Below, piece after piece: positions 1 to 52,100 of a stretch of DNA of 64,000 nucleotides. This DNA is from a virus. The stretch's first letter is position 1; each line of letters opens with the position of its first letter. The stretch lies in IMG/VR virus record IMGVR_UViG_3300009183_000083, positions 5,810 to 69,809 of that record; one strand, given 5' to 3'. The position numbers and the translations under genes were made by a program. The notes under the pieces are model-generated. The model ran no database searches and was not told the origin of the DNA. It was given only the letters and a program-made list of their open reading frames with translations.

Positions 1-8
1 GCAATTCA

Positions 9-476
9 TTATTTGTGATTTTGAACGTCACAAACTACTGAATAAGAAACCTTTTTCACAACTTTACAGGTTGGTGTACTCATACCACTTCTTGTGTATT
101 TTGCTGCGATTGTGAAATTTAGATTCTCAAATACACTTTCTACTTCAAGTGTGCATTCTGTCATAGGATCACCTTCAGTATCGCAAAACGACTCTTTAGA
201 AAACTTTGGCTCGCCTAAATCCAAACTCATTATCCATTCCATTGATTCTTCACGATTGTCAAATGACTTGCTGTAATGGATGTCTGTACTGCCATAAGCC
301 CACCAACCGCCACCGTACTTCTCACGAAATCTTTTGACAATTGGATCCATTTCAATTAGCAAAACTTCGCGTCTTAAGCTTTCAACTCGATAACTGTTTT
401 CACCGAATAGTTTTCCAAGAGCGTTTAGTGCTTGTTCTACTGTTACTTCTGTTTCGTTTTCGTATTCTGCTGTCAT
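9..476 (-). CDS. hypothetical early protein
   Basis: 155-aa ORF with an A/C-rich leader, in the minus-strand gene run. Confidence 0.7.
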   Translation of the reverse strand: MTAEYENETEVTVEQALNALGKLFGENSYRVESLRREVLLIEMDPIVKRFREKYGGGWWAYGSTDIHYSKSFDNREESMEWIMSLDLGEPKFSKESFCDTEGDPMTECTLEVESVFENLNFTIAAKYTRSGMSTPTCKVVKKVSYSVVCDVQNHK

Positions 477-506
477 GTTTTTGTTTGTATTGATTAAGAC
501 AATTAT

Positions 507-526
507 TTCCCAAGCCCGAAGGGCTT
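507..526 (-). promoter_or_regulatory. CCC-GAA-GGG triloop hairpin, candidate promoter element
   Basis: + strand TTCCC-AAGCCC-GAA-GGGCTT; near-identical copy at 60294-60313 with a compensatory outer pair. Confidence 0.5.
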
Positions 527-543
527 AGATGATTGATATAAAT

Positions 544-582
544 AAAAAAACTCCGACGACTTGACATCGTAAAGCACGGAGG
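544..582 (-). terminator. probable intrinsic terminator
   Basis: minus strand CTCCG...CGGAG stem followed by T7. Confidence 0.5.
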
Positions 583-660
583 TTATTAGTTGATCGGATG
601 CGCTTCTACACCCGCCTGCAATGTCCAGCAGGTCCGTTTGTCTTCTTGGGGAAGATTGTT

Positions 661-885
661 TTAGCGTTTAAGTATTGTAATCTTTTGGATTTTTTCCGCA
701 TTTGCATCAGGGTAATACCTTTGTGCTGCTTCAAGGCACTTTTCTACTGATGACGCGGCGATTACAAACTTATCTCGCTCGTTTGTGCCAATCATAGTTC
801 CAAACCATTCTAATTCTGTTTTTTTAGAATAGCTTTTATTATTTATGATCGGGATATATGCAGGTGTCGTGTCCATAACATTCAT
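661..885 (-). CDS. small hypothetical protein (start uncertain)
   Basis: short ORF co-oriented with its neighbours. Confidence 0.4.
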   Translation of the reverse strand: MNVMDTTPAYIPIINNKSYSKKTELEWFGTMIGTNERDKFVIAASSVEKCLEAAQRYYPDANAEKIQKITILKR

Positions 886-1020
886 TGATGCTTTTTGACA
901 GCTTTTTGTATTTTGTGTTCATTTCCATGATTGCTATTTGTATTAACAATAATGAAAAGCTAGTCACTGAGAATGCTGCGCCTACTATGATTGATGTGCT
1001 CATATTTTTTTGGGCATTAC

Positions 1021-1180
1021 CCCCATTTCTCGCCTCCGGGAAGCTTCTCCGTCAATAGACTCGCTTGTCCACATATCACGAAGCGTGATCAGCGCTTATG
1101 CCAAGGTGGATTTAAAAGGTCTGGCACATTAAAGCTTTTAACCTTATCGCTATCTACGTCTTCGGAGACGAGAAATGGAG
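1021..1180 (-). ncRNA. structured RNA: long closing stem around a pistol-ribozyme-like fold
   Basis: CTCCATTTCTCGTCTCCG pairs with CGGAGGCGAGAAATGGGG; inside are P1 AAGGT/ACCTT, a TTAAA linker, TCCAC/GTGGA, pseudoknot TGTGCCAG/TTGGCATA, GCG and ATCAC/GTGAT. Confidence 0.55.
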
Positions 1181-1211
1181 TGCCAGTATTACGCCTCTGG
1201 CAGTGCGTTTT

Positions 1212-1379
1212 TTAGTACAAATGACCTGCGTACTTGAGTTTTTTCCCTCCTGTGCGTTTGTGTAGCTCTTTACGGGCTTGCTTAATATCTTTGTGGAATT
1301 GAAGCATTTCTTTATGCGCGTTCCACTTTTTTTCTTCGTCTTTGCCGCTTGGCTGAAAGTTGTTTTGAAATTTTTCCAT
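1212..1379 (-). CDS. small basic hypothetical protein (55 aa)
   Basis: translated by hand: MEKFQNNFQPSGKDEEKKWNAHK...; ATCAATC-ATG leader. Confidence 0.55.
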   Translation of the reverse strand: MEKFQNNFQPSGKDEEKKWNAHKEMLQFHKDIKQARKELHKRTGGKKLKYAGHLY

Positions 1380-1397
1380 GATTGATTGTGTTTAGGT

Positions 1398-1448
1398 TTA
1401 GCTACGTTTCCAGTAGCCAGGGACGTAGTAGTAGGTTTCTGTGTGCAT
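1398..1448 (-). CDS. putative 16-aa micropeptide MHTETYYYVPGYWKRS
   Basis: same ATCAATC-ATG leader as the adjacent gene. Confidence 0.3.
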   Translation of the reverse strand: MHTETYYYVPGYWKRS

Positions 1449-1469
1449 GATTGATATGATTGATACGGT

Positions 1470-1512
1470 TAAAAAAAGGGAGCAGGACGCTTAACCGAAG
1501 TCAAGCGCCCTG
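1470..1512 (-). terminator. intrinsic terminator
   Basis: CAGGGCGCTTGAC-TTCG-GTTAAGCGTCCTG hairpin followed by a T-run, just after the 1523 stop. Confidence 0.65.
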
Positions 1513-1522
1513 TGTGTGTGTT

Positions 1523-1966
1523 TTAGAATTCGATTGCGACTTCTTTTGTATTGAAGAAACTATCTAAGTCATTGTAATCAACGTCTTCAGCTGCGACTGT
1601 GGAGATTGGATTAACATAGCTTACTTTTGCTTGTGTACGTCCATTATATTCTTCGTACTCAACTCGTACTGAGCAAGCTTGTCCTACGATGCTTTGCACA
1701 TCTTTGAAGGACTTCAGACCGAACGAAGCTTCTAGCTGTGAAGCCGTGTTTGCTGTACCTGCTAGGCTGGTGCAGTACATATTGTGTGTGACTTGACGCT
1801 CCGCAAGCTCGAGTTCTAGCTCAACGCTTAATTTGCCGTTTCGGTTTCTTGTCATTTGCGCGTTAAGGACACGTGCGCGGTGGTTTCCCGCTTTTAGCAT
1901 TTTGCTAATAGGGGTTAATAACGGTGGGGTTGTTTCAGTCATTGTTTCAGTTTCTGTAGTATTCAT
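1523..1966 (-). CDS. putative OB-fold ssDNA-binding protein (DUF669-like)
   Basis: G.HRARV...IVGQACSVRVEYEEYNG..AKV pattern and acidic tail ending in F. Confidence 0.6.
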   Translation of the reverse strand: MNTTETETMTETTPPLLTPISKMLKAGNHRARVLNAQMTRNRNGKLSVELELELAERQVTHNMYCTSLAGTANTASQLEASFGLKSFKDVQSIVGQACSVRVEYEEYNGRTQAKVSYVNPISTVAAEDVDYNDLDSFFNTKEVAIEF

Positions 1967-2034
1967 ATTTATTAGTTATTAGATTTTGTGAGGTGATCGA
2001 CTTGTGTTGTCGACCACCTTCTTACGTTTATCTC

Positions 2035-3780
2035 TCAAGCGCGAAGCGCTTCTTCAAACGCTCTTGAGAACGCTAATTCGATGCTCAGTGTTCCGGCTTT
2101 GATGGAGCGTAACACCTGACCCTTGCGGGCTTCGCGCTGGCGTTTTGCTTCTACTTTGGGTGACAAGCCGTAGCTCCACGAGTAGCGGCGGCTTGGGGCG
2201 GTTCCCATGGGATGTCCGTTTTTCCATTCGTGGCTGGTTGTTGTCATATCTGGCATTTTGTCAAGCTCTCGGATGATCGGACGCTCTATTTCGTTTGATG
2301 GCGAGTTACACGCTCCGGCGATGATCGCAGGGATCATCTTGGCGTGGTTCTCGCTTGACATGCACATCATTCGATTGGAGTTGTTTGGATACCAGTAGGT
2401 GACGAGGTGGTTAGTTTTGCTGTTACCGACAAACTTGTTCCACATTGTGTTGAGGCGTTTTAGCCTGACTAAATGTTGCTCTAAGTTTTGGATGATTTGG
2501 AGCGTTTTGTCGTCAATTTCTTCTAGCGCTTTCATTTTACGGATGGTCTTTTCCGTTCGCAGAATACCTTTATGGAGGTAGTCGTTGACGAACTGGGAGG
2601 ATTCTAAGTCTCCAAGTGTGATGCCAGCTTCTGATCGTTCAGTTACTGCTGAACAAGCTTGGAATAGCTCCATTTCTTCGTCGTCTTCGCAATATTTGGT
2701 GAAGTCTATGAATGTTTCGTCAGTTTCCCGTTGTGGGAACATTGTCAGGAACTCTTCTTCCTCGTTCATAAACTCAACCACTTCATTGTTTTCATCTGTA
2801 ACTGCCAAGTCGCTGCTTTCGCAGAGTAATTTGTAGTCAAGCTGGGACAGTGTGAGCGGTTTTTCGCCCTCTACAGGCATTTGCGTAAGCTCGTCGTTAC
2901 TGTCCAGCCAGTAACTTGATGGTGTGCATTTTGGGTTTGCTCTCCAGCCAACATATACTACCCACACGCTACCTGACCATATACTGGTGTAGCTTGGGAG
3001 GTATTGGTAGCAGAGTTCTTTTTCTCCATGTGAGTTGGTTTGCTCGAGCATTTCTGCTCCCAACAGTATGTTTAATATTGCTGTGTCACCACCGCGCATT
3101 ACGATGTTAAGTCTAGCCGCTATGTTCTGCATTGCTACGCTTGGGTATTTGTTTAGTTTAGGATTAAACTTTTCAGTTTTAGCTCCTAAATTTACTATTT
3201 TTCCACATGGCAATTTGATTGCGTAGTAGGCTGGTGAGTGACCTCTATCTTCTTGTGGCGGTAGTTCGTGTACTGTTGCGTCAATCCATTTGTATCCTTT
3301 ATCAGTTATCACTTTCTTAGCTATTACTTTTTCGCCGTAATGGCTGGCGTTCTGTAATTTATTTTGTTCTAGTTTCCAAGCCTTGCGGCTTTTAACTTTA
3401 TCGATGGCGTAGACCGCTGCGGACAAGCGGTCTTCAATACTTACTAAGCCTTCTTTCGAGGCGTTGATGAGTTTCTTTTCATCATCTGGCAGAAATCGAC
3501 CGAAGTTTCGGTAGATCATCATCTTTTGTTGCCATACTGCATTTGCTAATGCTCTGCGATCAGCGAATGAACTTAGTTCATCCGCAACTGTTGACATTAT
3601 TGGATCGTTTGAAACTACTTCCAATAGTGGTTTGATTGGGTTTATTAGGGGTTTCGTGAAATTGTTTTGCATTGCTGCAATCAGCTCTTCACGAGCTATC
3701 ATCATATCAAGTGGAGTGGTTTCTGTCACTCCCATTGTTTCTATGCTAGCGTTTGCGTAGGTCGCCACCGAGTTAGTCAT
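2035..3780 (-). CDS. large hypothetical protein
   Basis: 581-aa ORF; no recognised motif. Confidence 0.8.
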   Translation of the reverse strand: MTNSVATYANASIETMGVTETTPLDMMIAREELIAAMQNNFTKPLINPIKPLLEVVSNDPIMSTVADELSSFADRRALANAVWQQKMMIYRNFGRFLPDDEKKLINASKEGLVSIEDRLSAAVYAIDKVKSRKAWKLEQNKLQNASHYGEKVIAKKVITDKGYKWIDATVHELPPQEDRGHSPAYYAIKLPCGKIVNLGAKTEKFNPKLNKYPSVAMQNIAARLNIVMRGGDTAILNILLGAEMLEQTNSHGEKELCYQYLPSYTSIWSGSVWVVYVGWRANPKCTPSSYWLDSNDELTQMPVEGEKPLTLSQLDYKLLCESSDLAVTDENNEVVEFMNEEEEFLTMFPQRETDETFIDFTKYCEDDEEMELFQACSAVTERSEAGITLGDLESSQFVNDYLHKGILRTEKTIRKMKALEEIDDKTLQIIQNLEQHLVRLKRLNTMWNKFVGNSKTNHLVTYWYPNNSNRMMCMSSENHAKMIPAIIAGACNSPSNEIERPIIRELDKMPDMTTTSHEWKNGHPMGTAPSRRYSWSYGLSPKVEAKRQREARKGQVLRSIKAGTLSIELAFSRAFEEALRA

Positions 3781-7818: not shown

Positions 7819-8094
7819 TTAACTGTAACGAGCGTTAATCTCTTCAATCCGCTTGCGGCCAGCGGCGAGGAACTCCTCCTCACGCTCAATAGCTGCCCAA
7901 GCCTCAACCTCAAGACGCTTGACATCTTCTGGTCTACTACCTAGCCAACCACATTCAATGGCGTGGTCTAGGCGGCGAGCAGCAGCGTGCGCTTCTTCAC
8001 GAAGCCTGCGCTCCTTCTCTGCTACGCCACTGTTGGCGTAACGACGTGACGCAAGGCTGTCTCCTCCGTATGCGTATCCTGATAGTCTTCTCAT
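7819..8094 (-). CDS. first early gene, hypothetical charged helical protein
   Basis: 91-aa ORF with an ACAC-rich leader. Confidence 0.65.
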   Translation of the reverse strand: MRRLSGYAYGGDSLASRRYANSGVAEKERRLREEAHAAARRLDHAIECGWLGSRPEDVKRLEVEAWAAIEREEEFLAAGRKRIEEINARYS

Positions 8095-37177: not shown

Positions 37178-40100
37178 ATGCTTATTGATAAATCAAGTTA
37201 TTCTTCGGATAACAAATTACCAGAAGAAGAAGAAGAAGTACATCCATTAGCCTCTGAACTTGGAAGGCATTATCTTTTATCAGAAGATTACGTATATGGT
37301 GACGATAAAAAACTTGTAGCCAATCAGGCTTTTATGCACTGGGCTTCTGATCAAGAAGCTGAAAAAAAAGGAACAGTTAAAGCAACTGGTTATGAAAAAA
37401 ACGATGCTGGTGTTTTAGAAAAGGTTGAAAAAGATTTTCCTATGTTTAATGGGGAAAGTTTGACTTCTAAAGGACAAGAAGAATACGAGAAGGTTAAAAG
37501 GTATTTTGATGACGCTGCTTCTATGCCAAATGGAGGAGTGTCTCGTAATCCAACAACTCGCAAGTGGGAAGTGGATAGTCGCCTTGAGTCTGTTTTTACA
37601 GAAAAACAAGAAAAGCGTCCTGATCCATTTAAGGACATGTCGGAGTTTATTGATGAACAACTTAAAGTTACTAAGGAAGGTGATAGTCCCGCTTACACTT
37701 ACGAAGACTTTACTAACTTTTCTAACGCTGTAGTAAAGAACGGCGAAGCTCACCTTGATCCAAATAACAAGGAAATGAAAGCTCGCTTTTTACAAGAAGT
37801 GAATCGTCGTACATTTGATTCTTCTTTAATGGATGAAGCTGAAATTGGTCAGAAAGTAGCTGGAGCTTATGTAATCAACCCTAAAAATTACAGTGAAGTA
37901 GACAAAGTTGAAAGTTGGATTGAGGGCTTAACAGATCTAAGTGCTTCTGATAAGAAGATGATGCTTATTGATTATCGTTCTAAAATTGAAGCAAATGTTG
38001 GTACTTTAGTTAATGATTTTGCCGCTGCTGATGCTGGAGTGATTGGCGGTATTTTTAGTTCTCCTCTTCGTGATGAGTTTAATGAATACATGAGCAAGCC
38101 AGGAGCTAGTGGTTATCAATTTCTTAAAGAGAACAAAGAGCGAATGAGCAAAGACTCATATGGCGTTACGTCTGAAATTGCTACTAAATTTCGAGACTCA
38201 GTAATGGCTACCGGAACTGGTTTTTTATGGGCGGCGAGCGCTGGCAACTACACCAGCCCTGCGGAAGCGTGGGGTGGCTTGGCCGAGGATTCGTCCAAAG
38301 CATATTCAAATGGCAAGGCGTTCGAACTTTTTGGAGTCGACATCAACCGCCGTGATTTAACCGAGCTAACCGGACAGGTCGGGTCGTTTATTGCAATGGG
38401 TGGAATGGGCGCTTTAGCAGGTAAAGGATTGACCGCAATTGGTGCTCAAGGAGCTTCACGTTATGCTGTTAATGAAGCCGGGATTTTGCTTTCTACTGTA
38501 GCTAAAACAGAAGCAGCCGCTGCTGCTGGCACTAGAACTTTTGGACAAAAAACTTTAGCCGGACTAAAAGCGGCTGGGACTGATCCAGAAATGTATCTTG
38601 GATCGCTTCAAGCTGCTGGAACGTCTTTTGGAAAAACTTTTAATTCAACACTTGAAGAAACAGGAAGTCGTGAAGAAGCACTTAAGGCAGCAAACATTGC
38701 TGCAATATCAGATGGTTTTTCAGCTTTTATTGCAACAGGTGTGATGAACCGTTTTGCTCCAGGCATGGGCAAAGTGCTAGGAATGGGAGATGGCGAAGTA
38801 GGTGGTGGTATTGTTCAAGCATTTAAAAATAAAGCTTTAGCTAAAGAGTCGATGGAGCAAGTCCAGACATTGCTTAACAACCTTGATGGAAAAATTGGAG
38901 AACCGCTTCGCAAGCAATTTGCTAATGACATTGGAAGTGTGATGGGTGCTTCTGCACGTTCTCTTGGTTTAAAAGGAATTGGTATTTTTGGAAATATGGG
39001 AGCTGAAGCAATTGAAGAAGCTTCAGATGAAATTATTTCTGATGTTATTAGTTCGATGCTTGATGATTCTAAAACTTGGAACGAAGAAGTTTGGCAAAAC
39101 ATTGGGACCAAGTGGAAAGAATATGTTAAGGCGGGGGTGCTTGGTGCAATTGGTGGAGCAATGGGTGATGCTACATCAACAGTACTTAGTCCAAAAGAAA
39201 CATTTGGAACTAGCGAGGGACTTAAACTTCAAACTCAAGAATGGGACAGAATTAAAACTAATGTAAAAAAGTTTGACTCTATGGAGAATTTTGTTTTCCC
39301 AGCTCCTATTCAAGATGCAAAGAATCTTGCTGAGTATATTGCAATGCCTGATGACAAAGTTTCAATAGAACAAAAGTCAGATGCGTTGTTAGCGGCAGTT
39401 CGTAATAAGACTTTATTTACAAGCATGGTTAACGCCAATGTGCCTGTAGCCGATCCTAGTAGTGTTCCTGAGCCAAGTGTCACAGTTGACGCTGAAGGCG
39501 CACCTATAGCTAGCGACGCAGCAAAACAAGCCACTTCAGCTAGTGTGTTTGCTACAGTTATGTCAAACTCAGGTTTAGTTTTACCTGAGGGTCGTGTTTG
39601 GCGTGATGACATTTCATTTGCCCCAACTGAAGGAAGTTCTCCACTAAGTATATCTAATAATGTTAAAATCACACCATTGTCTACTGTAGCTGATGGAGAC
39701 AGAACAGATCATGTTACTTATGTAGCGGCAAAAAAAGAAACAACAAATCCAAATGGATCAGTTACCACTGAGTATTTAAGCGCAAAAGAAGCTGCTGCTG
39801 AATTAGGAACAGCAATGTCTAGTCTCAGTTCAAAGAATAGAACTAAAGCAAATAATTTAGTTAACAACTTTCTCAGCAAATCAACTAATACTAACTATAA
39901 TGAACAATGGTCAACTGAAGTTCAAAAAGAACAAGGAGCTTCTTCTTCTGAACCTAATTTAACAACAGAATCTAAACTGTCATCAAGCATAGAAGGTGTA
40001 CCACTAGATGTTGGGTCGGAAGTAAAATGGGAAAGCTCAAATGGTAATGGTCCGCGCAGTGGTAAAATTATATCTATTGACGCAGCAAGTGGTATGGCTG

Positions 40101-43100
40101 TTGTGCAAATGCCAGATGGAAAAGCTCGTGACGTTCCCGTTAAGGCCTTTAGTCAGGCTGAAACTCCAACTGTAGCGGAGGGCGCTCTTATTTCCTCTCA
40201 AAACCAATCTCCTGGAATAAAAAAACAACAAACAATAATAAAAAATGAACAACAAGAAAATGATGCCAATGATGGGAGCAATGATGAAGCCATCAGCAAA
40301 GCCGAAAGCGATGCCGAAAAAGATGGCGAAATCAATGCCGAAAAAGATGGCGAAGAAAAAGATGTGTTAAGTGAATCAGGAGCTGCTGGGGAAACATCTC
40401 CAGCAGCTTCTTCTAGTAGCGTTAATAATCGCATTAAAATCAGAAATCGGCTCAAAGGAGTTAAAAACACAGAGCCTCTTGTTAACAAAGAAAACGATCG
40501 CTTTTACAAATCAGACGGAGGAATTTATGTTTCTAAAGGAAAAGATCCCGTAACCTATGTTACCGACGATGAAATTGATGCTGAGATTGAAAGACAGGGT
40601 GGCAATCTAAATAATGCCCTTAAAGTGATCAACGATAAGATCACAAAAATGGGCGGTAATATTAACGCTTATGCTTTAGACATACAAGAGAAGACAGCGG
40701 AAAATGCCACTTCATTAACTTATCAAGACGTAACTTACGTTGCTGACCCTAGTCTTATTCAAGATGGAACTGATGCAATTGGCGGCAAGTGGATGATGAT
40801 AACTAACGAGAAGACTGGTGTTGTGTCTTATACTTATCGTCCACCTACTGGAAGCGCGTTATCATTAGGAATTGGTGAAGTTGTAGCAATTGATGGAAAA
40901 CCTGACGAATTCTTAGTAGTAAAACGAGTATTCAATGGTCGATGGGATTTTGAAAAAAAGGATGCTAAAGACGCAGCTGGAGACATTATCAATGATAAAG
41001 GCTTAACTCAAGAAGGAAACAAATTTACTCGTTCTCGTTTATCTTTAATTTCCAAAGAATTTGAAAAACATTTTGAGTCAATTGTTAATGGAAAAATTAA
41101 TCCAGAACAAATGGAGAAATTATTTCTTAAAGTATTGAAAATTGTTTCTCCTAAAAAAGATTTTGTTGTTGTCAATAAAGACATGTCTGAAGAAAAAGGT
41201 TATGTTTACGCAAGCCGAAACAATGAGAATCCAGATGATTTTGGTTCAATCAATGTAGACTATAAGAAGCTGTCTGAGCAACTTTCTCAACTTTATCGTA
41301 CAGCTAATACTAAAAATAAATTTTCTAATGCTCTTCTTGGAATGGATGCAGCAAGAGTTGTTTCTGCTATTATTGATGAAGAACTCACTCACTTAATTGG
41401 ATTTAAGATTTTTGACGATGCTGAACTTTTTTCGTTTTACAGATCTATTCTTGATCTTCCAAAAAACAAAGATGGTACTGAGCATCCATTCAAACAAATT
41501 CTTTTAGAAACTTTAACTGAGCGGTTTCCTCAAAGACAAGGTTTGCCTGCGTTAAGCCCCGAGATTGATGGGTTTGATGAAGGTACAGTAGGTGATGCTG
41601 ATAACATGGATGAGATTGTCCTGACAGTGGCAACAGAAATGATTCGTAAGCTTCATCAGATGGCAACACGCGGAACTACCACAGAACGCGATACAGAGCT
41701 TTCTAGACAGCTTCAGGCTGCGATTTATGGTGACGCTGCTGCTAAGTCCCAAGAAACTGCTGAATCAAAGGTGAAGGGGCCTTTAAACGTCATTGGTCAA
41801 ATAATTAGGCGTTACGCTGAACGTGTTCGCAATATCCTTTGGATGAAGTGGCAACAAGGGATGCTACCACGAAACACTCGTGATATGCTTACAAGATTAA
41901 ACAAAGCTTATCAAAACGAAGGGATTCAAGGTGATGTAGACTTTGGTTATGACGCTGCGATGGAAGAATCAGAGCGCCGAGTAGAACAGTATGAGAAATC
42001 TTTTATTGATGAAACTAGCAAAATTGCAAGGATTTCTAATCCTGCAATGATGAAGCTTCGATCAATAAGCAGGGAGTTTGGTTACATGTCTCTTGGTGAA
42101 TCCCTAGTAGTTGACAAAGACACAATGACGCTTTCTCTTCATCCAAAAATCATGCAACACATTAAGGATAATAACTTAATGGACTTGGATTTGGTAAATA
42201 AAGTTTTGTTTGAATTAAATGGTGAGGGTGTCAGCACTCCATCTTATCAAAAAGCAGTTACTGTAGCTTTTCTAAAGCAGCAAGTTATGGATTTAAAGCG
42301 TGATAAACTTACGTTTAATCCTTCTGATTTGTTTGACTCAATGAAAAATGATGAGGGGTTATTTGGTAATCAAGCAAAAGATGCTAAGTCTGCAAAGCAT
42401 TCTGTTTTATGGAGACAAATTCTTGAAGGCATTCCAGAAAACAACTTTGAAGCATCACTAAAAGAAGTTGTCTCACCATTAGTTTCTGAGCGAAACGAGA
42501 TGTGGAAAGAACGTGATCGTTTGCATGGATTAGTTATTCAAGAAGCATTTAAGGCAGTTAACGCAATTGATACAGATTTGGGTGGGTTCTCTTCAATTAA
42601 AGCGTTAATTAAATGGGGTCGCTTGGCTCAAGTCAAACGACCTGGAAAAAGAGAATTAGTTGATATTTTTGATGATTTTACATTTCCTAGCGAGCAATGG
42701 TTTGAATATCAATCTCCTGCAGATAAGTTAATTAATGCAACTCCAGAAGAATCAGCGCAGGTGCGTCGTGATTTCAAGCAATCCATACTTCAATCGCTGG
42801 CTCTTTCTCTTCCTTCAATTACCGGAGAAAGTCATGTTAAATTTTTAGAGTCTATTGGTGGTCCTGTTTCAGAAGCTTTAGCCGAACTAAAGAGTACGGA
42901 AAAATCTTTAGAAACTATAACTCAATATATTGAAACAATTAAGTATTATAATAAATTCAATCACTTTATTCCAGGAATGGACCCTAAGGATAGGGATCAG
43001 CTTAAGACTGCAATGTCTGCAGAACGTAACGCGCGAAGCCCGAAAAAAAGTGGGCTACCTATAAATGATGAAAATAATGTTCTTCAGCGTCAGCAACCGC

Positions 43101-46100
43101 TTTCACCTGAAGCGCAAGCTGCTTCGTTTTCTATTTATCAAGAATACATTGAGTTTTCTCGCGCTGTAGATGACTACAACAAATCTATTCAATTTGTAAA
43201 GAACCGAGCATTGGGTGAGTTTGGTACACGTTCTGAGGAGTTTGGAATGAATTATGCAGACATGAATAAAGCAACTGGCAACAACGCTACGCTTGAGTTT
43301 AAAAGCATGACTGACGAACTTCAGCCTGCTAGTACGCCTAATGATGTATTTAGCGGAAATATGATTCCAGAAGGAATGAAATATGGTTACGGGTCAATAG
43401 CTCGTTTTGATGATAATGGAGAACCACTTTCAGAAGAAGAACAGGCATGGAACGCTGGACTAGAAGTTTATCGTTACACAATGCAATCAAACGCTGATTT
43501 TGTTGGCAAAAATTTATTTTTAAACTACTGGGTTAATCTTCAACTTGGGAAAGTTGTTTTGTCTGGTGTTGCTAGTGACTACGAAAAAACAGGAGGATTC
43601 TTATTTAAAAGACAAGTTAACGAAATTGAAATGGTAGATTACGAAACTGCTGATCAAGCGTTTCCTGACTTACCAACTGAAGAGCTTGGAGAAGCAAAGA
43701 TGAAACTTAAGTCTGGCGGCGCAGAAGACATTCTTAATGTTATGCGTTTTTTCCAAAAGGTTAACGTATGGGCAAGCGGAATTAAAAGCAAGTATCAAGG
43801 AGTTACGACAGATGAAGTTGGTGGAGAGCAAGGTTTTGCTGGTCGCATGATTCCAATGCTTAATGAATTATTTGGAAAGATGGAAAGCATGATTGATCCA
43901 ATTAGTGGAGAGTCATTTATTGGACTTACTGAAGGATTGGATTTTGATTTAAAAGCACACGTTGAAGACGTAATAAAGTTTTTAAGTCGTCATTACGAGA
44001 TGAAGGATTTTTACACAAGATCTGGTAGTTTTGTTATGCCTACAGAAGAAGTAAAAGACTTTATGGACTTCTTTAAAATGAAGGACGGCAAGTTAATTAA
44101 AATTTCATCACGTAAAGACAATCAAATTGCTAATGATTTTTCTGGTGTGCTTTTAAATTCAGGCAAAAAACTTAAGGTTTCATTACGCAGCGCTACCCAA
44201 GGTGTTAAATTAATGAAACGTTCTTTTAAAGCGTTTAGTAACCCTCGCTGGAAGCGTAACGTTGAACAAGAAGGTAGTCGTTATCAACGTGATCCTGCAT
44301 ATGAACCAGACAATAAAGCTATTCTAAAGCTCGGAGAAATGACGGCAGATGCCCGAATGAGAAATCAGATGAAGTGGAATTTAAAATATTTTGAAACTAG
44401 CCGTAATTACATTTTTGGTTCTAATTGGGCATTTGAATTTTACAATGATATTCAACGAAGCAGTTATGGAGAAGGACGAGAGCCTTATGTAAAAATCAAA
44501 GCTTCAAGCATAAGTGCTAATAGAGATATAACATTAAATGAAATGTTTGATCCTAATCGGTGGACCCTTGAAAGACCTAAAGGATTTATTCCTAATCAAC
44601 AAGATTACAACGATTCTTTATATTTTGGTGTCGGAAAAGAAACAAGAAGAGTAACAGATACTAATCTTTATTTAAATCCAGAAAGCGAAGTAATTAATCC
44701 AAACGAGTATTCCGGAAGCGAAGATGATCCTCGTGTTGCTAATTCTAGCATGTCTACTACAGACCCTACGGTTAGGGGGTACACTCAAACTTATAACGAA
44801 GGTCGTGCTTCAACACCACAGGAAACTGCTCAAAGGGCTTTTGGACGTTCTGCAGTTTCCCGGTCGATTAAAATAACTCAAGCGGCTATGTTCATAGGCA
44901 GCAATGGTCCAAGCGGACGTTCATCGTCAGACGCAGATCAATTTTATTTTGACATGATTCGTCTTGGAAGAGACAACGATTGGTTTACATCAGAAAACAT
45001 TATTGAAGAACGCAATCGTTCAAGTAATAACGTGTTTTTTGCTGATTTGACAAATGATGAAATTGATAGCATGGATAATCGTCAGATTATGACGGTTTTT
45101 CGTCAATCTATGACTGACAGTCTTGTTCGTCGTGGATTAAAAGGATTGTTTCCAGCTTTAGATTACACAAATGATGAAACTCATAACAAGATTTACGATG
45201 CGTTTCTTGATGAATACGGAAACAAAACAGACAAAAACGGTAAGTATTTTTTTATTGATTCAGAAAAGTTTATTTTAGATTTGCTTGAGTTTAAGATGAA
45301 GTTTGAACGGGCAGTTGTAGAAGAAAACCGTGTTAAGAATCAAGATGACATTGCTATAGCTTACGATTTAATTTCTAAAGGAAATCAATTTGTATCTCCT
45401 AATGAGTCTGAGCGCATGGCTAAAGCCATCAAGGAGTCAATGACGAGTGAAAAATTTAATATTTTTGATACTCGTCTTGGTACTGGGCTTGGAACAGGAA
45501 ATGCAATTGTGGATCATTTAATTGATACGCTTCCAGGCAGAACACTAATTGTTGAAATTCGTTCTGATGTTGCAGATGCAAACGATTTAAAGGGACTTAA
45601 CATTCAAGTATTTAAAGGCAATCAAAAACAAGGTGAGGCAATCACTCCGAATGTTGTTTTTATGCCATTAAATCAAAATGGTCCATATCTTTCCAAAGAC
45701 AAAGCAAGAAGTTTAATTAGCCAGTTACTCAGCATATCGGCTGAAAACAACTTAGTAGTTAAAAAAACGCTTCTTGATCTTTCTGCTAAGATTGATGCTG
45801 AATTAAAGCCAGTTCAGTTGGCTGATGGTCTTGTAATTAGCTATCGTTCTAAACCAAAAAAGAAAACGTTTTTTCCTAAAAATCGTTACATTTTTGATGC
45901 TTTTGACAAAATGGCGGCAATCCGATCTGATTTTGACATTGTTTCAAAAAGCTTATCTTTTCCTGGCGTTGATCCAAACTTGGTAGACGCAATTATTATG
46001 GTTTCTGCATTTCTTACTAACGATGATGCTAAAACATTTCTTGATCAATCTTATAAAGGATTTGAAGTTCGCGTTTCAAGCAATTTGCCGCAGCAAATAC

Positions 46101-49100
46101 AAGATGATCTACTTCATTCAATTTGGATGATTCGTCAAAGCAAACTTTATGAAACTAATCGTTTTGGAGATGAGACAGAAAACCTTGAATCAAACGATAA
46201 TAACAACGAAGAAAATGAAATTGATGATGAGGAAGAGTTTCCTGATCCAGACAAAGATGTAGACAATTCTGACCCATCTCAAGAACTTGATGATTCACTT
46301 GAAAAAAGTGAAGAAGCTAATAATTTTTTTGCTGACAATGTTATTCCTGAACTTGAAAAAAAGATAGCTGAGATTGAAGATGGCAAATTAGAAATTGAAA
46401 TGGTAATTGCTTCTGCTGATTTTGGTGTAAACGATGCAAGCGATATACTGCTTTATAATGCTCTTGCTTCAATTGTTGAGGCTGGAATAAAACGTGAAAG
46501 TTTGGAAGTTGTTAAAGGTCTTCAGGAAAGATATTCTAACAAGGGCCGCAAGGCTAGAAGCACTCGTGATATTCTGGCTAATCCTAAATTAGGTGGACAG
46601 TCAGGTAATCTTCGCGCTGATCTTGCTGCTCCAGTAGTTAAATCTAATGCAAAAGAGGATGAAGAGGTTGGGTTTTCACAAACAAAAATGAGTTTTGCTG
46701 TTAAAACTTATATTGGAGAAGCAATTAATATGGCTCGTCCAAACGTAAAAAATAGAACCGTTTTGAATTCTGAATTTGCTTCCACTAGGATTAATAATAT
46801 AAACGCTGCTTTAATTTACAGTTTAAGCAGTGTTGAAAATCAAGTTGAAGAACAACTTACTAGGTCTTTTAAATCAGCTCTTGGGGCTGTTGCAAAAATA
46901 AATTTTAGAAGCAATACAAAAAACGGAACTTTGGATTCTGTTAAGATTTCTAGCCAAAAAATTGAAGTTGTTGTTAATGATGAGCTTCTTTCTGAATTAG
47001 GAAGAAACTTGCCAGCAGCTGAATTAGAAGTTGCTTTGAGTCAGACTCGAAAAGCAGTTGAAGATTTATTTGTAAGCAAAGATAGATTTGAAACTATTTT
47101 AGCTTCTTTAAAAGAAGATCGCGCTAATGCAGTAGTTCTTAATTCAAAAAATGTTGCTGAATACTGGGCTAATACACCTACATCAATTCCTGATGCAACA
47201 GGAAAACGTAAAGGCAAAAAAGTTTCAAATGACGAGTTAAGCAACGCAATGAGCAAAGAGAATGTTGAATTAGCAAGAGCTAAGTCTGCAGCTCTTGTTG
47301 ATAAGTTGCGTGTAATTGATCGCCAAATTAATCGCGTCCAAGATGATCTACTTGCAGTAAAACGTGAGATTTCTAAAATTGAAAATTATCGCGGTCAAAC
47401 TGTTTTAGGTCGTTCACATTTTAAAGCTAATATTGGATTAGACATTCTTAAAAATGAAGAAGGCACACAGATTTCTGCTGCGGTAGAAGAGGCTACACGT
47501 AAAGTTGGATTTAATATTATTACTACTCCGTTTTTTGGCTCAATTGACGAACGTGCTCGCTGGATGGACACATCTTCTGATAACGCAATAGCTGATGTTG
47601 AAATCAAAGAACTTCGAAAAGAACATTACATTAAAGAACAGGCAATGATTTCTGCTTTAACGCAGTTAGCAACTGATCACATTGATGATGCTTATAAGAT
47701 TTCTAGAAACACAGCGGATAATTTTATGGATTTTAATCCGCTTAAAGCAATTCGCCAAGCAATTGAGATTTCCAACGTTGAATCAATTGTTTTGAAAGAT
47801 CAAATGAAGATGGCAAGAACTGAAGCTGAAAGTGCCATGATGAGAGGGTTGGAGGCTGACGATATTGCAATGTTGACTGACCCCGCTTCAACTAATTTAA
47901 TGGTGATGACGTTTGCTGATCAAGCAAAACTTACTCCACAAGAAAAAACAGGCAAAACAATTTTAACACCTAATCAATACACTAGATTACGTATTTTAAA
48001 CATGCCTAAGAGCATGACAGAAAGAAGTAAGAAGATTGGAGCGCTATTTAGTCAGGAAGGCCAAAACGCAATCTTAATGCCTACTACAGTGAAGGAGCAG
48101 CTTATGAGGGCATTTCCTATGACTGTAACAAAAAGGAACGTAAACAGCACTATAACACAGATAGTAGCTGAAGCAGCGGCTTTGTCTCAGAATGTCTCAC
48201 TTGATTCAATGCGTCATTCCGAACTGGAAGCCAAGCATAACGATGGAACGATTACTCCTGAGGAGACAGAAACGGCTCAAAAACTTGTATATGAGGCAGC
48301 TGATAAAAAGGGGTATGACCAAAAAGGACATAGAGCAGGAGTGTATAAAAATGGAATTCCACTCCTACCAAGCACAACTGGTGGTTTGGGGTCTGCTTAT
48401 TATGCTATTTTGGGAGGTTCTCTCGAGGAAATTAAAGAGTTTGGTGGGGAGATTTTGGGCCCTGACCGAAACAACCCGTCGATTAAAACAATAGCTGGTG
48501 AAGTGAGAATAAATCTTGGTGATAAACCTTTATTTGTTAAGCACCCCAGTGAGGTGTCAGAATGGGCTGATAAAAATAACCTTATTCCATCTTTTTATGC
48601 TTGGTTGAATTACCAACAAGCAGTCAATTCAGTTTATGATACCATCTATAAGGGTCAAAATAAAACAGATTGGAATGCGCCTACACGTCGTATAGACGTT
48701 AATCCAAACAGTCTTGAAGCCAGAAGAGCAGGACGCTTATACATAGAAACTGCTGAAAGCAAAAAAGAATACCGAGATGCCCTAATTAAAGATGGGTATT
48801 CAGAAAAGGACATTGACCGAATGAGGCTGAATGAAGACACGGTAGGAACTTCTGATGCTGCTAAGTTGAATTCTTTCTTGTTTGATCAAGGTCATGTTAC
48901 TGCAATCGTAGCAGATTGGTCTGGAGCTGCAAAAAATAAGAGAGCTTCGGGTGATGGACGTATGTTCACCGAGGTTGCATTAGCAAATCCAGATCAAATC
49001 AAATCCGCAGAACCCTTCACTGGAGTTCCTTTGGATCAAAGGTTTAACCCACAAAGTCATAGCATTGCTTACGCTGCCAATCTTGATTCACGCCCGATTT

Positions 49101-52100
49101 TAAACATCCGTTCTTCTGTTCGAAAAGCATTAGAGGATTCTGGTTTTTCGTTTAGCGATAATTTTGATGATGTTCAAGCTAGCAAGATTGCTCGCGTTGT
49201 TACAAAACGGTTGCGTGGAACTCGTGACACCAGCCCGGAATTTATTTTAGATGGTTCTGAAGCATTATCGTATTTAGTTTACGAACAACTTGGTCTTCCT
49301 GAGCGAGATCAAGCTGGCCGAGAATCAATTCAAAAAGCTATCGCTTCGTGGATGGAAACAGGTAAAGATCCAAAGAATATTGATAAGTCACTTTGGCAGA
49401 AGGTGCTTGAAGTTATTGAACGCATTAGTTCGTTATGGAATGGATCTAAATTCCAATCTATTGAAAAAGCTCTTTCAAGCGAACTCAATCAAATCGAAAT
49501 GGGGAACAAGAATTACTTCTTGTCTCCTGCTGTTGGTCGTTCAAAAATAAGTTTCCAAGGTATTGTCAATCGCAATCCAGACGCCGTTGGGGTGATGAAC
49601 TACCTTCAAGATCAAGGAATTGATTTTATACTTACTGGAAGCTTTGCTTACGCCGATCAAGTGTCAATTTATCGTAGCGCCGATAAGCCTGTGCATGATG
49701 TTGATCTAATTTTAAAGAGCGGAACGGTTGATTTAGCTGCAGACAAACTAAAGAATCATTACACTACCGCTAATCTTTACGACTTTCATCCCCGTAAAGG
49801 CGAGGCATCCCGCATCAATGGAATTATTGTTGTTCCAAAATCTCAACAAATAACTAACCTCATAACTCGTTGGGTAAAAACGCGAAATGGCTTTGAACCA
49901 TTACGTTCGTATGATGTTATCGACAACGTGACTGGTAATAAAGTAGGGTCTTATAAGTTTTCTCCATCTGGTGAAGTTTCAGATAATGCTGGAGTAATAC
50001 TTGATTTAATTGAGCACAAACCCGGTGTTGAGCGAGAGTTTGTAAATCAATCATTTCAAGATGGGTCTGACAACAATCGCACCATCAAGGTAAGTAATTA
50101 TGTTTCTGGATTTGTTCACAAGCTGGAGCTTCTTCGCTATAAGGATTTGCGAGACTTTAGAATGGCTCGTCCAGCGAACACTGAGGGTTCTGCTGTTTTG
50201 GATTCCACAACTCAATCGGTCAATAATCAGGGTCAAGGAATTGCTTATGCTGCAAACCTCAACCCAACAGATCATTCTTATTTCATGAACTCTATGGAGA
50301 GCTTGAAAAAAGAAACATTTTCTGGCGACGAGTTTAGCCTAACTAAAGGCAAAACAATGACTAAAGAAGAAGCGGCTAAAGCATTTTCAACTGAGTTTGC
50401 TAATAAGGTTAAAGTGTTTCTTAATACAATTCGTAATAATGGAGATGTAAACGGAAAGAAAGTTTTTGATTCTAATGGCCCTCTTTATCAAGCACAAATT
50501 GAAGAATTTTCCTTCATGCTTGAAGGAATGGTAATGGCTTACAACGACTCAGCCGGGGTGTTAAAAAAGGAAACAAAAGATGCGGTAAGAACTTTATTAA
50601 AAAGCATTAGTGAAAACAATGAAGGATCTTTTTCTTTTATTTCAGAAAGACAGTCATTTGGTATTGATATTAACACTGAAAACATGGTTAACTTTAGGAT
50701 TCCAAAAGTGTTTTCAAGTGTTTTTATGGATGTTGAAACCGATTTGATTGTTAAGCGTCTTACTTCATCTATGACTATTCATAATGGATGGGCATCATTG
50801 TTTACAATGAAGTATCTTGATCATCATGACTCTCGTATGCGCAATCGTTTTCAGAAAAACCGCGCTGGTCGACAAGCGGCACTTCATTTGAAAAACATTC
50901 TTGATCGAGGCGTGAGCGGCAAAAGCGGACGTTCAGCTTACGAAACGCGAAAAAAAGCAGCTCAAGAAGAAATTGCTCAAGCTGCAAAAAAACTTGATAA
51001 TAATGCTTTAGATCAAACTATTGGATATTTTCATGCAATGCTTGATGGTCTTGATAACGCTAATGGCATGACCTATGTTAACGCATTCAACTCTTGGTTT
51101 AATCAAATAAAACGTGGTTTTGATCAATATAATGAGTTGGTAAAAGAAGTAGATAGTTATTACGATAAAAACGAAATTTCAAAATATTGGGATGCTAATC
51201 ACATTGATTTACGTCGTGACAAAGAATTAACTGATAAGATCAAAGAGATATTAAATAGTGCTAAAGCAACATCTGATTTCATTGATGAATCTAAAGCAAG
51301 AGAAGCGGTAGAGCGAATTCAAAAAGCGTTAATAGATAATGTTACTAAAGGTAAAGAAGCAGATGTGCTTAATTATTCTACAACTGTATCTAGAGTTTTA
51401 GGTGATATTGATAGTGCAATGCATTTAACAATGGCAATGCTTTCTCAGCCTTCTGATCCACGAATAGATTCTGAAAAAAACAAATGGAATAATCGTGAAG
51501 TTAAAGGATATAAGCGAACCTATTCATCTGTTCCAATGATTATTGGATATGCTGGCAACCCTAAAAGCAAGGTTCCAATTAAACAAGGTGAATACATTTC
51601 TGATGCTATGGATATTGTAGCGTTTGATAGGTCTTCATTTTTTGGCGGTGTCGGTCATTCCTCACAGCGCTTTGACGATAAAAGTGTATTTCGACCTATT
51701 TTTGTTAATGGAGTGATGGCTCCACAATCTTTAATTGATGATGCTATTTATCGTCTTAACGTAACTCCAACTTATGAAGTGCTTCGTCGTTCGCTTGGAA
51801 AGGTTAAAGACACATCTGGACAACTTGGTATTGAAGATAGCGGTATTCTTGAAATTGTTCAGTCTCAAGTTCCTGATATTAATTTGCCAACTCAGGATTA
51901 CAATGAACAGAAGCACAATCATGACATGGAAGTTGATGCGACAACTACAGCTTTGGCTTTTGTCGCAAACGAATTAGAAACTACAATACGAAATGACTAT
52001 CAAACTGGTGTAGTAAATACTGGTGGTGCAGAAATATTGAGATTTTTAGGTTCAACGTTTATTGTAAGATCTTTAGCATCATTACAACAGATTACTGACC

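Follow-up and report, generated by a model that had tools for sequence, protein, structure and literature searches.

A conserved structured RNA of freshwater phages with the helix order, but not the catalytic features, of a pistol ribozyme

We identified a member of an undescribed family of structured phage RNAs, about 185 nt long, at positions 1021-1207 of a 64-kb stretch of viral DNA (hereafter the window), which is part of the 69.8-kb IMG/VR record IMGVR_UViG_3300009183_000083. All coordinates of the element are given on the minus strand of the window. The element lies in a gap of 208 nt (1004-1211) that separates two small minus-strand open reading frames (ORFs), 1212-1379 and 839-1003. 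An earlier inspection of the letters (hereafter the sequence-only reading) had proposed here either a variant or inactive pistol ribozyme or a new motif with similar topology, enclosed by an 18-bp stem and accompanied by a twister ribozyme. All the strings on which it was built are present on the minus strand within 1062-1150, and because they are kept in 17 other loci, their occurrence is far beyond chance. We are highly confident that the element is a conserved structured RNA and not a pistol. The order of helices (P1, a loop-to-junction pseudoknot, an A-rich linker and P2) is that of pistol in all 18 sequences and forms the core of a larger conserved RNA, so that the second of the two proposals is the one that stands. 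The 216-nt region has a folding energy of -71.9 kcal/mol, compared to a mean of -52.4 kcal/mol for shuffled sequences (z = -4.53; none of 200 shuffles as good). Judged from the alignment, a coding or DNA-level explanation is ruled out, because the core alignment of the 18 sequences contains insertions and deletions of 1 and 2 nt, which exclude a coding frame, and because the G.U pairs in the terminal stem H1 are compatible with the minus strand only.

The 17 further loci (designated by L-numbers) are freshwater phage and metagenome contigs that were collected by pattern scans and by R1, a covariance model of the 78-nt core, and score 74.6-106.6 bits. R1 gave the first members 79.9-106.6 bits and chance matches at most 20.2 bits. 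Together with the window these loci make up the working set, which holds 14 distinct core sequences; 13 members are rather close to one another. A search with the neighbouring 581-aa protein gave three related loci, in two of which nhmmer detected the element; in L004, which carries a relative of this protein with 42% identity, neither nhmmer nor R1 found a copy. Scans of viral sequences for the core pattern returned 7 matching stretches and then 8. A first relaxed viral scan returned 33 stretches, comprising 7 known members, 4 new ones (74.6-92.6 bits) and 22 chance matches (at most 18.1 bits), and a second returned 17, namely 7 known members and 10 chance matches (at most 12 bits). In the metagenome scan 10 of 59 stretches were true members, accepted by their upstream GCCAG/UU.AAU context and a spacing of 25 nt, and the rest were chance or coding matches. 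Among 185,579 representative prokaryote genomes, 25 stretches were found, mostly in Bacteroidota. These are not members, because all of them lie in open frames of 105-1509 codons and score at most 20.2 bits; they are coding look-alikes and no evidence of a host.

The 78-nt apical core carries 30 invariant positions. P1 is formed by AAGGU (1141-1145) and ACCUU (1116-1120), is paired in 98.6% of the alignment cells and has changed on both sides at all five pairs. Its loop (1126-1140), rightly described as expanded in the sequence-only reading, contains an invariant U.AA.G and a weak mini-hairpin, P1a (92.9% paired), and has insertions of 1 or 2 nt in L009, L003, L022 and L028. The 3' end of the loop, GCCAG (1121-1125), is complementary to UUGGC (1100-1104) in 18 of 18 sequences, giving a 5-bp pseudoknot that is invariant and shows no covariation. 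These five pairs are what remains of a pseudoknot drawn with 8 bp, which is 68.8% paired and whose three additional pairs form in only one to three of the 14 distinct sequences. The linker that follows P1 reads UUAAAU in the window (1110-1115) and is invariant except for its third base, which is A in 4 and C in 14 of the 18 sequences (UUCAAU); the spelling UUAAA is thus not a feature of the family. UUNAA would be compatible with the T-loop consensus. P2 consists of CCAC (1106-1109) and GUGG (1072-1069), the latter preceded by AU (1074-1073), and the whole of AUGUGG (1069-1074) is invariant in 18 of 18 sequences. With 4 bp, P2 is 94.6% paired, compared to 85.7% for the 5-bp version first drawn; no pair has changed on both sides and one sequence has a U.G. 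After CCAC stands a single invariant C (1105), which bears out the remark that no purine-G precedes the pseudoknot strand.

The helix to be reassigned is the one downstream of the pseudoknot strand. Here we find a hairpin, S1 (1081-1097), in which AAGCG and CGCUU form a 5-bp stem around the 7-nt loop CUGAUCA. S1 is 95.7% paired, and all five of its pairs have changed on both sides, in more than one lineage. The hairpin P3 (AUCAC 1089-1085 with GUGAU 1079-1075) of the sequence-only reading overlaps it; the string is present in the window, but its register is kept in 80.0% of cells. In the window alone, S1 (-3.9 kcal/mol) and P3 (-4.2 kcal/mol) are thermodynamically equal, and therefore only the comparison decides between them. 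S1 is also the alternative AGCG/CGCU hairpin that had been set against a pistol fold with a pseudoknot: covariation favours this hairpin, and the pseudoknot strands are complementary in 18 of 18 sequences. Four of the five P3 pairs can coexist with S1: UGAU (1075-1078) and AUCA (1089-1086), the latter in the loop of S1, would then form a 4-bp pseudoknot, S2. S2 is 80.4% paired and its changes on both sides come mostly from the window. We regard this second small pseudoknot as possible only, because one or two of its pairs are disrupted in L009 and in the group of L076, L078 and L080.

Taken over the 14 distinct sequences, 94.2% of the cells in the revised core model are paired and 16 of its 26 pairs have changed on both sides; on the same core alignment the pistol drawing is paired in 81.4% of cells overall. 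None of 500 shuffles reaches the observed values of the revised model, and slid controls are 29.7-42.6% paired. Covariation supports the terminal stem, P1 and S1.

The core is carried by a long stem. In the window, H1 joins 1163-1180 to 1021-1038; each of the 18 positions pairs, two of them by G.U, and the enclosing 18-bp stem is thus real. In the family it measures 17-22 bp. For the 17 other members, H1 and the basal helix are 94.0% paired, and 9 of 25 pairs have changed on both sides. A full-length model of these members, made up of H1, a basal helix interrupted by an invariant asymmetric loop (GGGC/GAGCGACC), the helices H2a and H2b and the core, is 93.3% paired, and both sides have changed in 22 of 60 pairs. 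Terminal stem and core are the same in the window, whereas its middle part differs. Its 5' strands (1150-1162) are a 3-bp extension, AAG 1162-1160, and the helix H2, CGUAGAUAG 1158-1150; on the 3' side (1041-1058) H2 is completed over nine positions by CUAUUGACG 1058-1050 and the extension by CUU 1043-1041, next to a CC bulge at 1040-1039. This arrangement comes from one sequence, whereas the other members have GGGC/GAGCGACC, H2a and H2b at this place. Between H2 and P2 runs a single-stranded linker, ACAAGCGAGU (1059-1068), which contains AGCGA; this stretch resembles the invariant GAGCGACC loop of the other members. The window junction AAGCGAG may correspond to their GAGCGA loop, the two AGCGA stretches being presumably homologous. 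A kink-turn was considered for the GGGC/GAGCGACC loop and rejected, as the strands do not appear to fit the kink-turn consensus.

How close is this core to a pistol? In the parts of PMC4604425 and PMC6154101 drawn on here, pistol has the helices P1-P3 and a pseudoknot of six pairs, with covariation, and ten highly conserved nucleotides, among them purine-32, G33, G40, C41 and G42. According to the same parts, its P3/P2 junction is two nucleotides of fixed length, a modestly conserved GU, and holds the cleavage site, and G40-C41-G42, which follows the pseudoknot strand, provides the general base and its support. Purine-32 is the general acid, and the change A32C is reported to abolish activity (PMC6154101, in the sections consulted). 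The element shares with pistol a P1 loop complementary to the strand that separates P2 from the following hairpin, an A-rich linker from P1 to P2, P2 strands that enclose the pseudoknot strand and the hairpin, an intergenic home in phages, and covariation in P1. It differs in its 5-bp invariant pseudoknot (6 bp and covarying in pistol), in its expanded P1 loop with a mini-hairpin, and in forming part of a 185-nt RNA that is closed by an 18-bp terminal stem. The element is not a pistol because the catalytic features were tested and are absent. In the place of purine-32 and G33 there is a loop of one nucleotide, invariably C (18 of 18 sequences). The window is the only one of the 18 sequences with GCG (1095-1093), and there it lies inside S1; the others have CCG, CUG or UCG, which form the 5' strand of S1. 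The two-nucleotide junction is replaced by the 8 nt that S1 leaves before P2', and the register that would leave two (AU) is the 80.0%-paired one that overlaps S1. The likeness in connectivity does hold, and is firmer than the window alone could make it, because P1 shows covariation and no member has lost the remaining complementary strands.

The pistol is not the only ribozyme with this layout. Pistol and the pseudoknot (PK) hammerhead have an identical fold and connectivity, and the latter has eleven conserved core nucleotides that include a loop, C3-A9, between helix I and the pseudoknot (PMC11300833, in the part consulted). The core of our element shares the helix connectivity and the compact pseudoknotted fold. 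A PK hammerhead is excluded, because its catalytic loop sits at the very place where the element has one nucleotide, the single C, and C3-A9 is left without a counterpart. A hammerhead reading was likewise rejected: no CUGANGA/GAAA core is visible by eye, and Rfam gives no hammerhead match.

Searches of known families agree with this assessment. Within the 64-kb window no Rfam 15 family attains its gathering score, and this includes pistol and twister. At E<=10, nothing falls on the element in a search of positions 1-3000, and searches of 990-1225 and of the typical members L021 and L011 gave nothing. The search of 1-3000, in which twister was also absent, returned two weak matches only, to a miRNA (E 1.8) and a snoRNA (E 8.1), both outside the element. 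The first of these is a long hairpin at 2488-2617 (+), within the 581-aa gene and on the opposite strand; this plant-miRNA look-alike is very likely a chance match. A tRNA-like or tmRNA reading was rejected, as ARAGORN finds none in the window, and blastn of 950-1300 against GenBank phages gave no match. Our literature search found no description of the RNA family; all that it turned up was a general catalogue, that of Fremin et al. 2023 (PMC10690425), which, in the part available to us, reports about ten thousand candidate structured RNAs from IMG/VR with models of 29-151 nt. Part of the RNA may already be in this catalogue, without name or function.

The RNA is preceded by what may be a signal of its own. 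In the window, a box ACGCACU and a hairpin, H0 (1181-1207; UGCCAG 1202-1197 with CUGGCA 1186-1181, and a loop containing CGUAAU), abut the terminal stem. By inspection, a hairpin adjoins the 5' end of H1 in every family member, with differing sequences. In L003 (7927-7951), L076, L078 and L080 the RNA is preceded by a closely related 25-nt motif, ACGCCUGACCGACGUAAUCGGUCAC (ACGCC-U-GACCG-ACGUAAU-CGGUC-AC), which is identical among them. The motif recurs about 230 nt downstream in L076, L078 and L080, before the next gene or RNA, and a variant with 4 mismatches stands downstream of the RNA in L083, again before the next gene. It has one or two sites per record and occurs once in a complete 73.9-kb relative, near the right end. 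A search for a second H0-like box in the window gave one exact site and a few loose matches, of which the one inspected, near 8024-8041, is dissimilar. H0 and the 25-nt motif look like a rare phage promoter or a 5' processing signal. The GUAAU-containing hairpin H0 is probably what prompted the call of a companion twister. After the second copy of the motif in L076 lies a second RNA of 80 nt (2841-2920, minus strand), whose 19-bp terminal stem and basal CAGUAAGGGC loop are of the same kind; its apical part, of 43 nt, has no pistol-like core. The two RNAs may be paralogues that have the stalk module in common.

In every locus the RNA is co-oriented with the flanking genes, and at least five gene neighbourhoods can be distinguished. 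The names of the neighbours were read from translations and not from family searches, with the exception of SSB, which has a weak PHROG match. An SSB-like gene and the 581-aa protein lie upstream of the RNA in the window, L002 and L003, a primase-helicase-like gene lies upstream in L006 and L019, and a 120-aa protein in the L007 group. Downstream lies a DNA polymerase A-like gene in L005 and L028, and PRPP-synthetase-like and NAMPT-like genes on the 196-kb contig L009. Between the RNA and the following start codon lie about 16 to 85 nt, depending on the locus. A search of 800-1500 found neither a sigma-70-type promoter nor an intrinsic terminator, which fits ends made by processing or a non-standard promoter. 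In six loci, which represent four contexts, same-strand tRNA genes lie 0.3-4.2 kb from the RNA: Thr in L002 (8632-8700), Met in L009 (5889-5963), L076 (1396-1469) and L078 (1137-1208), Leu in L080 (2676-2750), and a gene called by Rfam only in L083 (7149-7233). The occurrence of the RNA in phages with unrelated neighbours, often near tRNA genes, suggests that its function is tied to a conserved host or phage machine.

Thirteen sequencing runs match the sequence, with small shares; they are DNA runs or of unknown type, and none is an RNA run. Close relatives of the window, represented by contigs from four freshwater DNA runs among these and aligned to 900-1400, differ from it at a single position within 1021-1190, namely 1131, in the weak P1a. 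The same contigs have 6-23 differences in the adjacent ORF 1212-1379, and their differences at 1010, 1015 and 1020 fall just outside the terminal stem. This ORF, which encodes 55 aa upstream of the RNA, diverges fast among the close relatives; related ORFs occupy the corresponding place in L002 and L003, and L028 has one in a different place. On the other side of the RNA, A-rich stretches without a Shine-Dalgarno sequence precede the start codons in the window (1004-1020) and of the genes downstream of the RNA in L005 and L083 (e.g., AAAAAAAUAUG). Such starts are hints of a Bacteroidota-type host, as far as leader sequences can indicate one. Further away, beside the structural genes of the window, positions 37178-53500 (+) form a single ORF of 5440 aa. 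Neither half has a PHROG match, and an N4-like virion polymerase, as which it was considered, could not be shown, PHROGs finding no family; a virion-packaged enzyme is one possibility.

What could such an RNA do? Our preferred reading, which we hold tentatively and with a little less than even confidence, is that of a stable, trans-acting non-coding RNA, closed or processed by way of its long stem. The contexts and flanking features, considered jointly, agree better with an autonomous RNA module than with a single-gene regulator; such a module would have its own 5' signal, a long stem and a conserved folded head. A stable-RNA gene would also agree with the proximity of tRNA genes, the recurrence of the 25-nt motif before the next unit and the absence of a standard promoter and terminator. 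In this reading, H1 would close and protect the RNA or serve as a stalk for processing, e.g., by host RNase III, and the folded core would thereby be released or stabilised. Within the core, the nucleotides that are single-stranded and invariant (U.AA.G, UUNAAU, C, AU, AGCGA) would bind a conserved phage or host partner in trans. There are precedents for this architecture. The pRNA of phage phi29 and the bacterial and phage Y-RNA-like RNAs are small stable RNAs, phage-encoded and untied to one downstream gene, whose paired ends form a long helix with a bulge near its top, and whose apical multi-helix module has loop-loop complementarity. Our element likewise has paired ends, a long helix, a bulge near the top, an apical module and no fixed downstream gene. 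It differs in that Rfam gives no match, that its phages are 55-196 kb in size and not phi29-like, and that its loop-loop pairing never varies, whereas that of pRNA covaries.

Several observations weigh against the reading as a conserved, trans-acting structured RNA. The shuffle controls overstate the significance, since the 18 sequences are all relatives of one another, 13 of them close ones. The pseudoknot and P2 are backed by complementarity and not by covariation, because both are invariant and never covary, and P2 has an uncompensated G.G in 3 of the 14 distinct sequences. The terminal stem of L009 is just 11 bp long, with one mismatch, and the window is without the GGGC/GAGCGACC basal loop common to the 17 other members. 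The window itself has no tRNA gene according to ARAGORN. A gene for Ro60/TROVE (PF05731) was not found in the 69.8-kb phage record, in a search in which control genomes were positive; such a partner may be encoded by the host. Finally, invariant junction nucleotides are equally expected of a ribozyme or an aptamer.

Alternatively, the element could act in cis on its own transcript, without any function in trans, as an RNase III site, a 5' stabiliser or a put-like RNA that follows a phage promoter and modifies the polymerase transcribing it. The co-orientation with the flanking genes and the lack of a following terminator fit this well, as does the promoter-like box with a hairpin that directly precedes the RNA and, in L080 and L083, also the next gene. 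A long, nearly perfect stem is moreover plausible as an RNase III substrate. The early RNase III hairpins of T7-type phages are a close parallel, as they too are intergenic, co-oriented with the flanking genes and found in varied gene contexts, and have a long stem with an asymmetric internal loop. Nonetheless, these hairpins are about 60 nt long and have no conserved pseudoknotted apical domain, whereas the element has a 78-nt core with 30 invariant positions among unrelated neighbours, which a processing or stabilising hairpin would not need. Additionally, one or two sites of the box per record are few for a general promoter. We consider an element acting only in cis unlikely, though by no means negligible.

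A new class of self-cleaving ribozyme built on the pistol and PK-hammerhead scaffold, with a different active site and cleavage at or near the invariant AU (1074-1073), appears quite improbable to us. In its favour, two known nucleolytic ribozymes have this helix connectivity, none of the 18 sequences departs from the AU, and the invariant unpaired nucleotides cluster at the junction of P2, the pseudoknot and S1. A position between phage genes on the coding strand is furthermore a typical home of small ribozymes in the part of Harris et al. 2015 (PMC4604425) used here. The invariant linker, the S1/S2 pseudoknot and the AGCGA loop would be the candidates for its active site. However, the loop that is catalytic in pistol and PK hammerhead is a single C in the element, S1 leaves 8 nt and not 2 before P2', and 141 kb of family loci yielded only tRNAs and no known ribozyme. 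It would also be odd for a processing ribozyme to have an 18-bp terminal stem, as this would be expected to hold the products together.

A riboswitch-like sensor of a ligand, placed over downstream genes of replication or nucleotide metabolism, is very improbable. It would explain the compact pseudoknotted core with its invariant junction nucleotides, and suitable genes do lie downstream in L005 and L028 (DNA polymerase) and in L009 (PRPP-synthetase-like and NAMPT-like). In the other contexts, however, the downstream genes are unrelated, neither a terminator nor a platform that sequesters the start codon is present, the spacing to the next start varies, and the 18-bp closing stem would seem too stable to switch. 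Lastly, a variant or degenerate pistol, which in the window can be drawn in full order (P1, linker, P2, pseudoknot strand, hairpin and 2-nt junction) with a P3 as stable as S1, is scarcely credible in view of the lack of any Rfam match at E<=10, the invariant C in place of purine-32/G33, the confinement of GCG to one sequence, the better-kept S1 and the further conserved helices of the 185-nt RNA around it.

It is conceivable, although we hold it to be decidedly unlikely, that the pistol and PK-hammerhead scaffold carries a third kind of functional RNA here, with the core as its catalytic or ligand-binding centre. This would be either a new ribozyme class with a different active site or a stable phage-encoded RNA that, like phi29 pRNA, works with a conserved protein machine, and several unrelated types of freshwater phage would have it in common. 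The calls of a pistol and a twister arose from resemblance of patterns, and the comparison reassigns one helix and takes away the catalytic residues. If the family is real and functional, the few structured RNAs known from phages would be joined by a large and strongly conserved one. In its core the helix layout of two ribozyme classes would be reused, which raises the question of whether this scaffold is a general one for compact RNA active sites.

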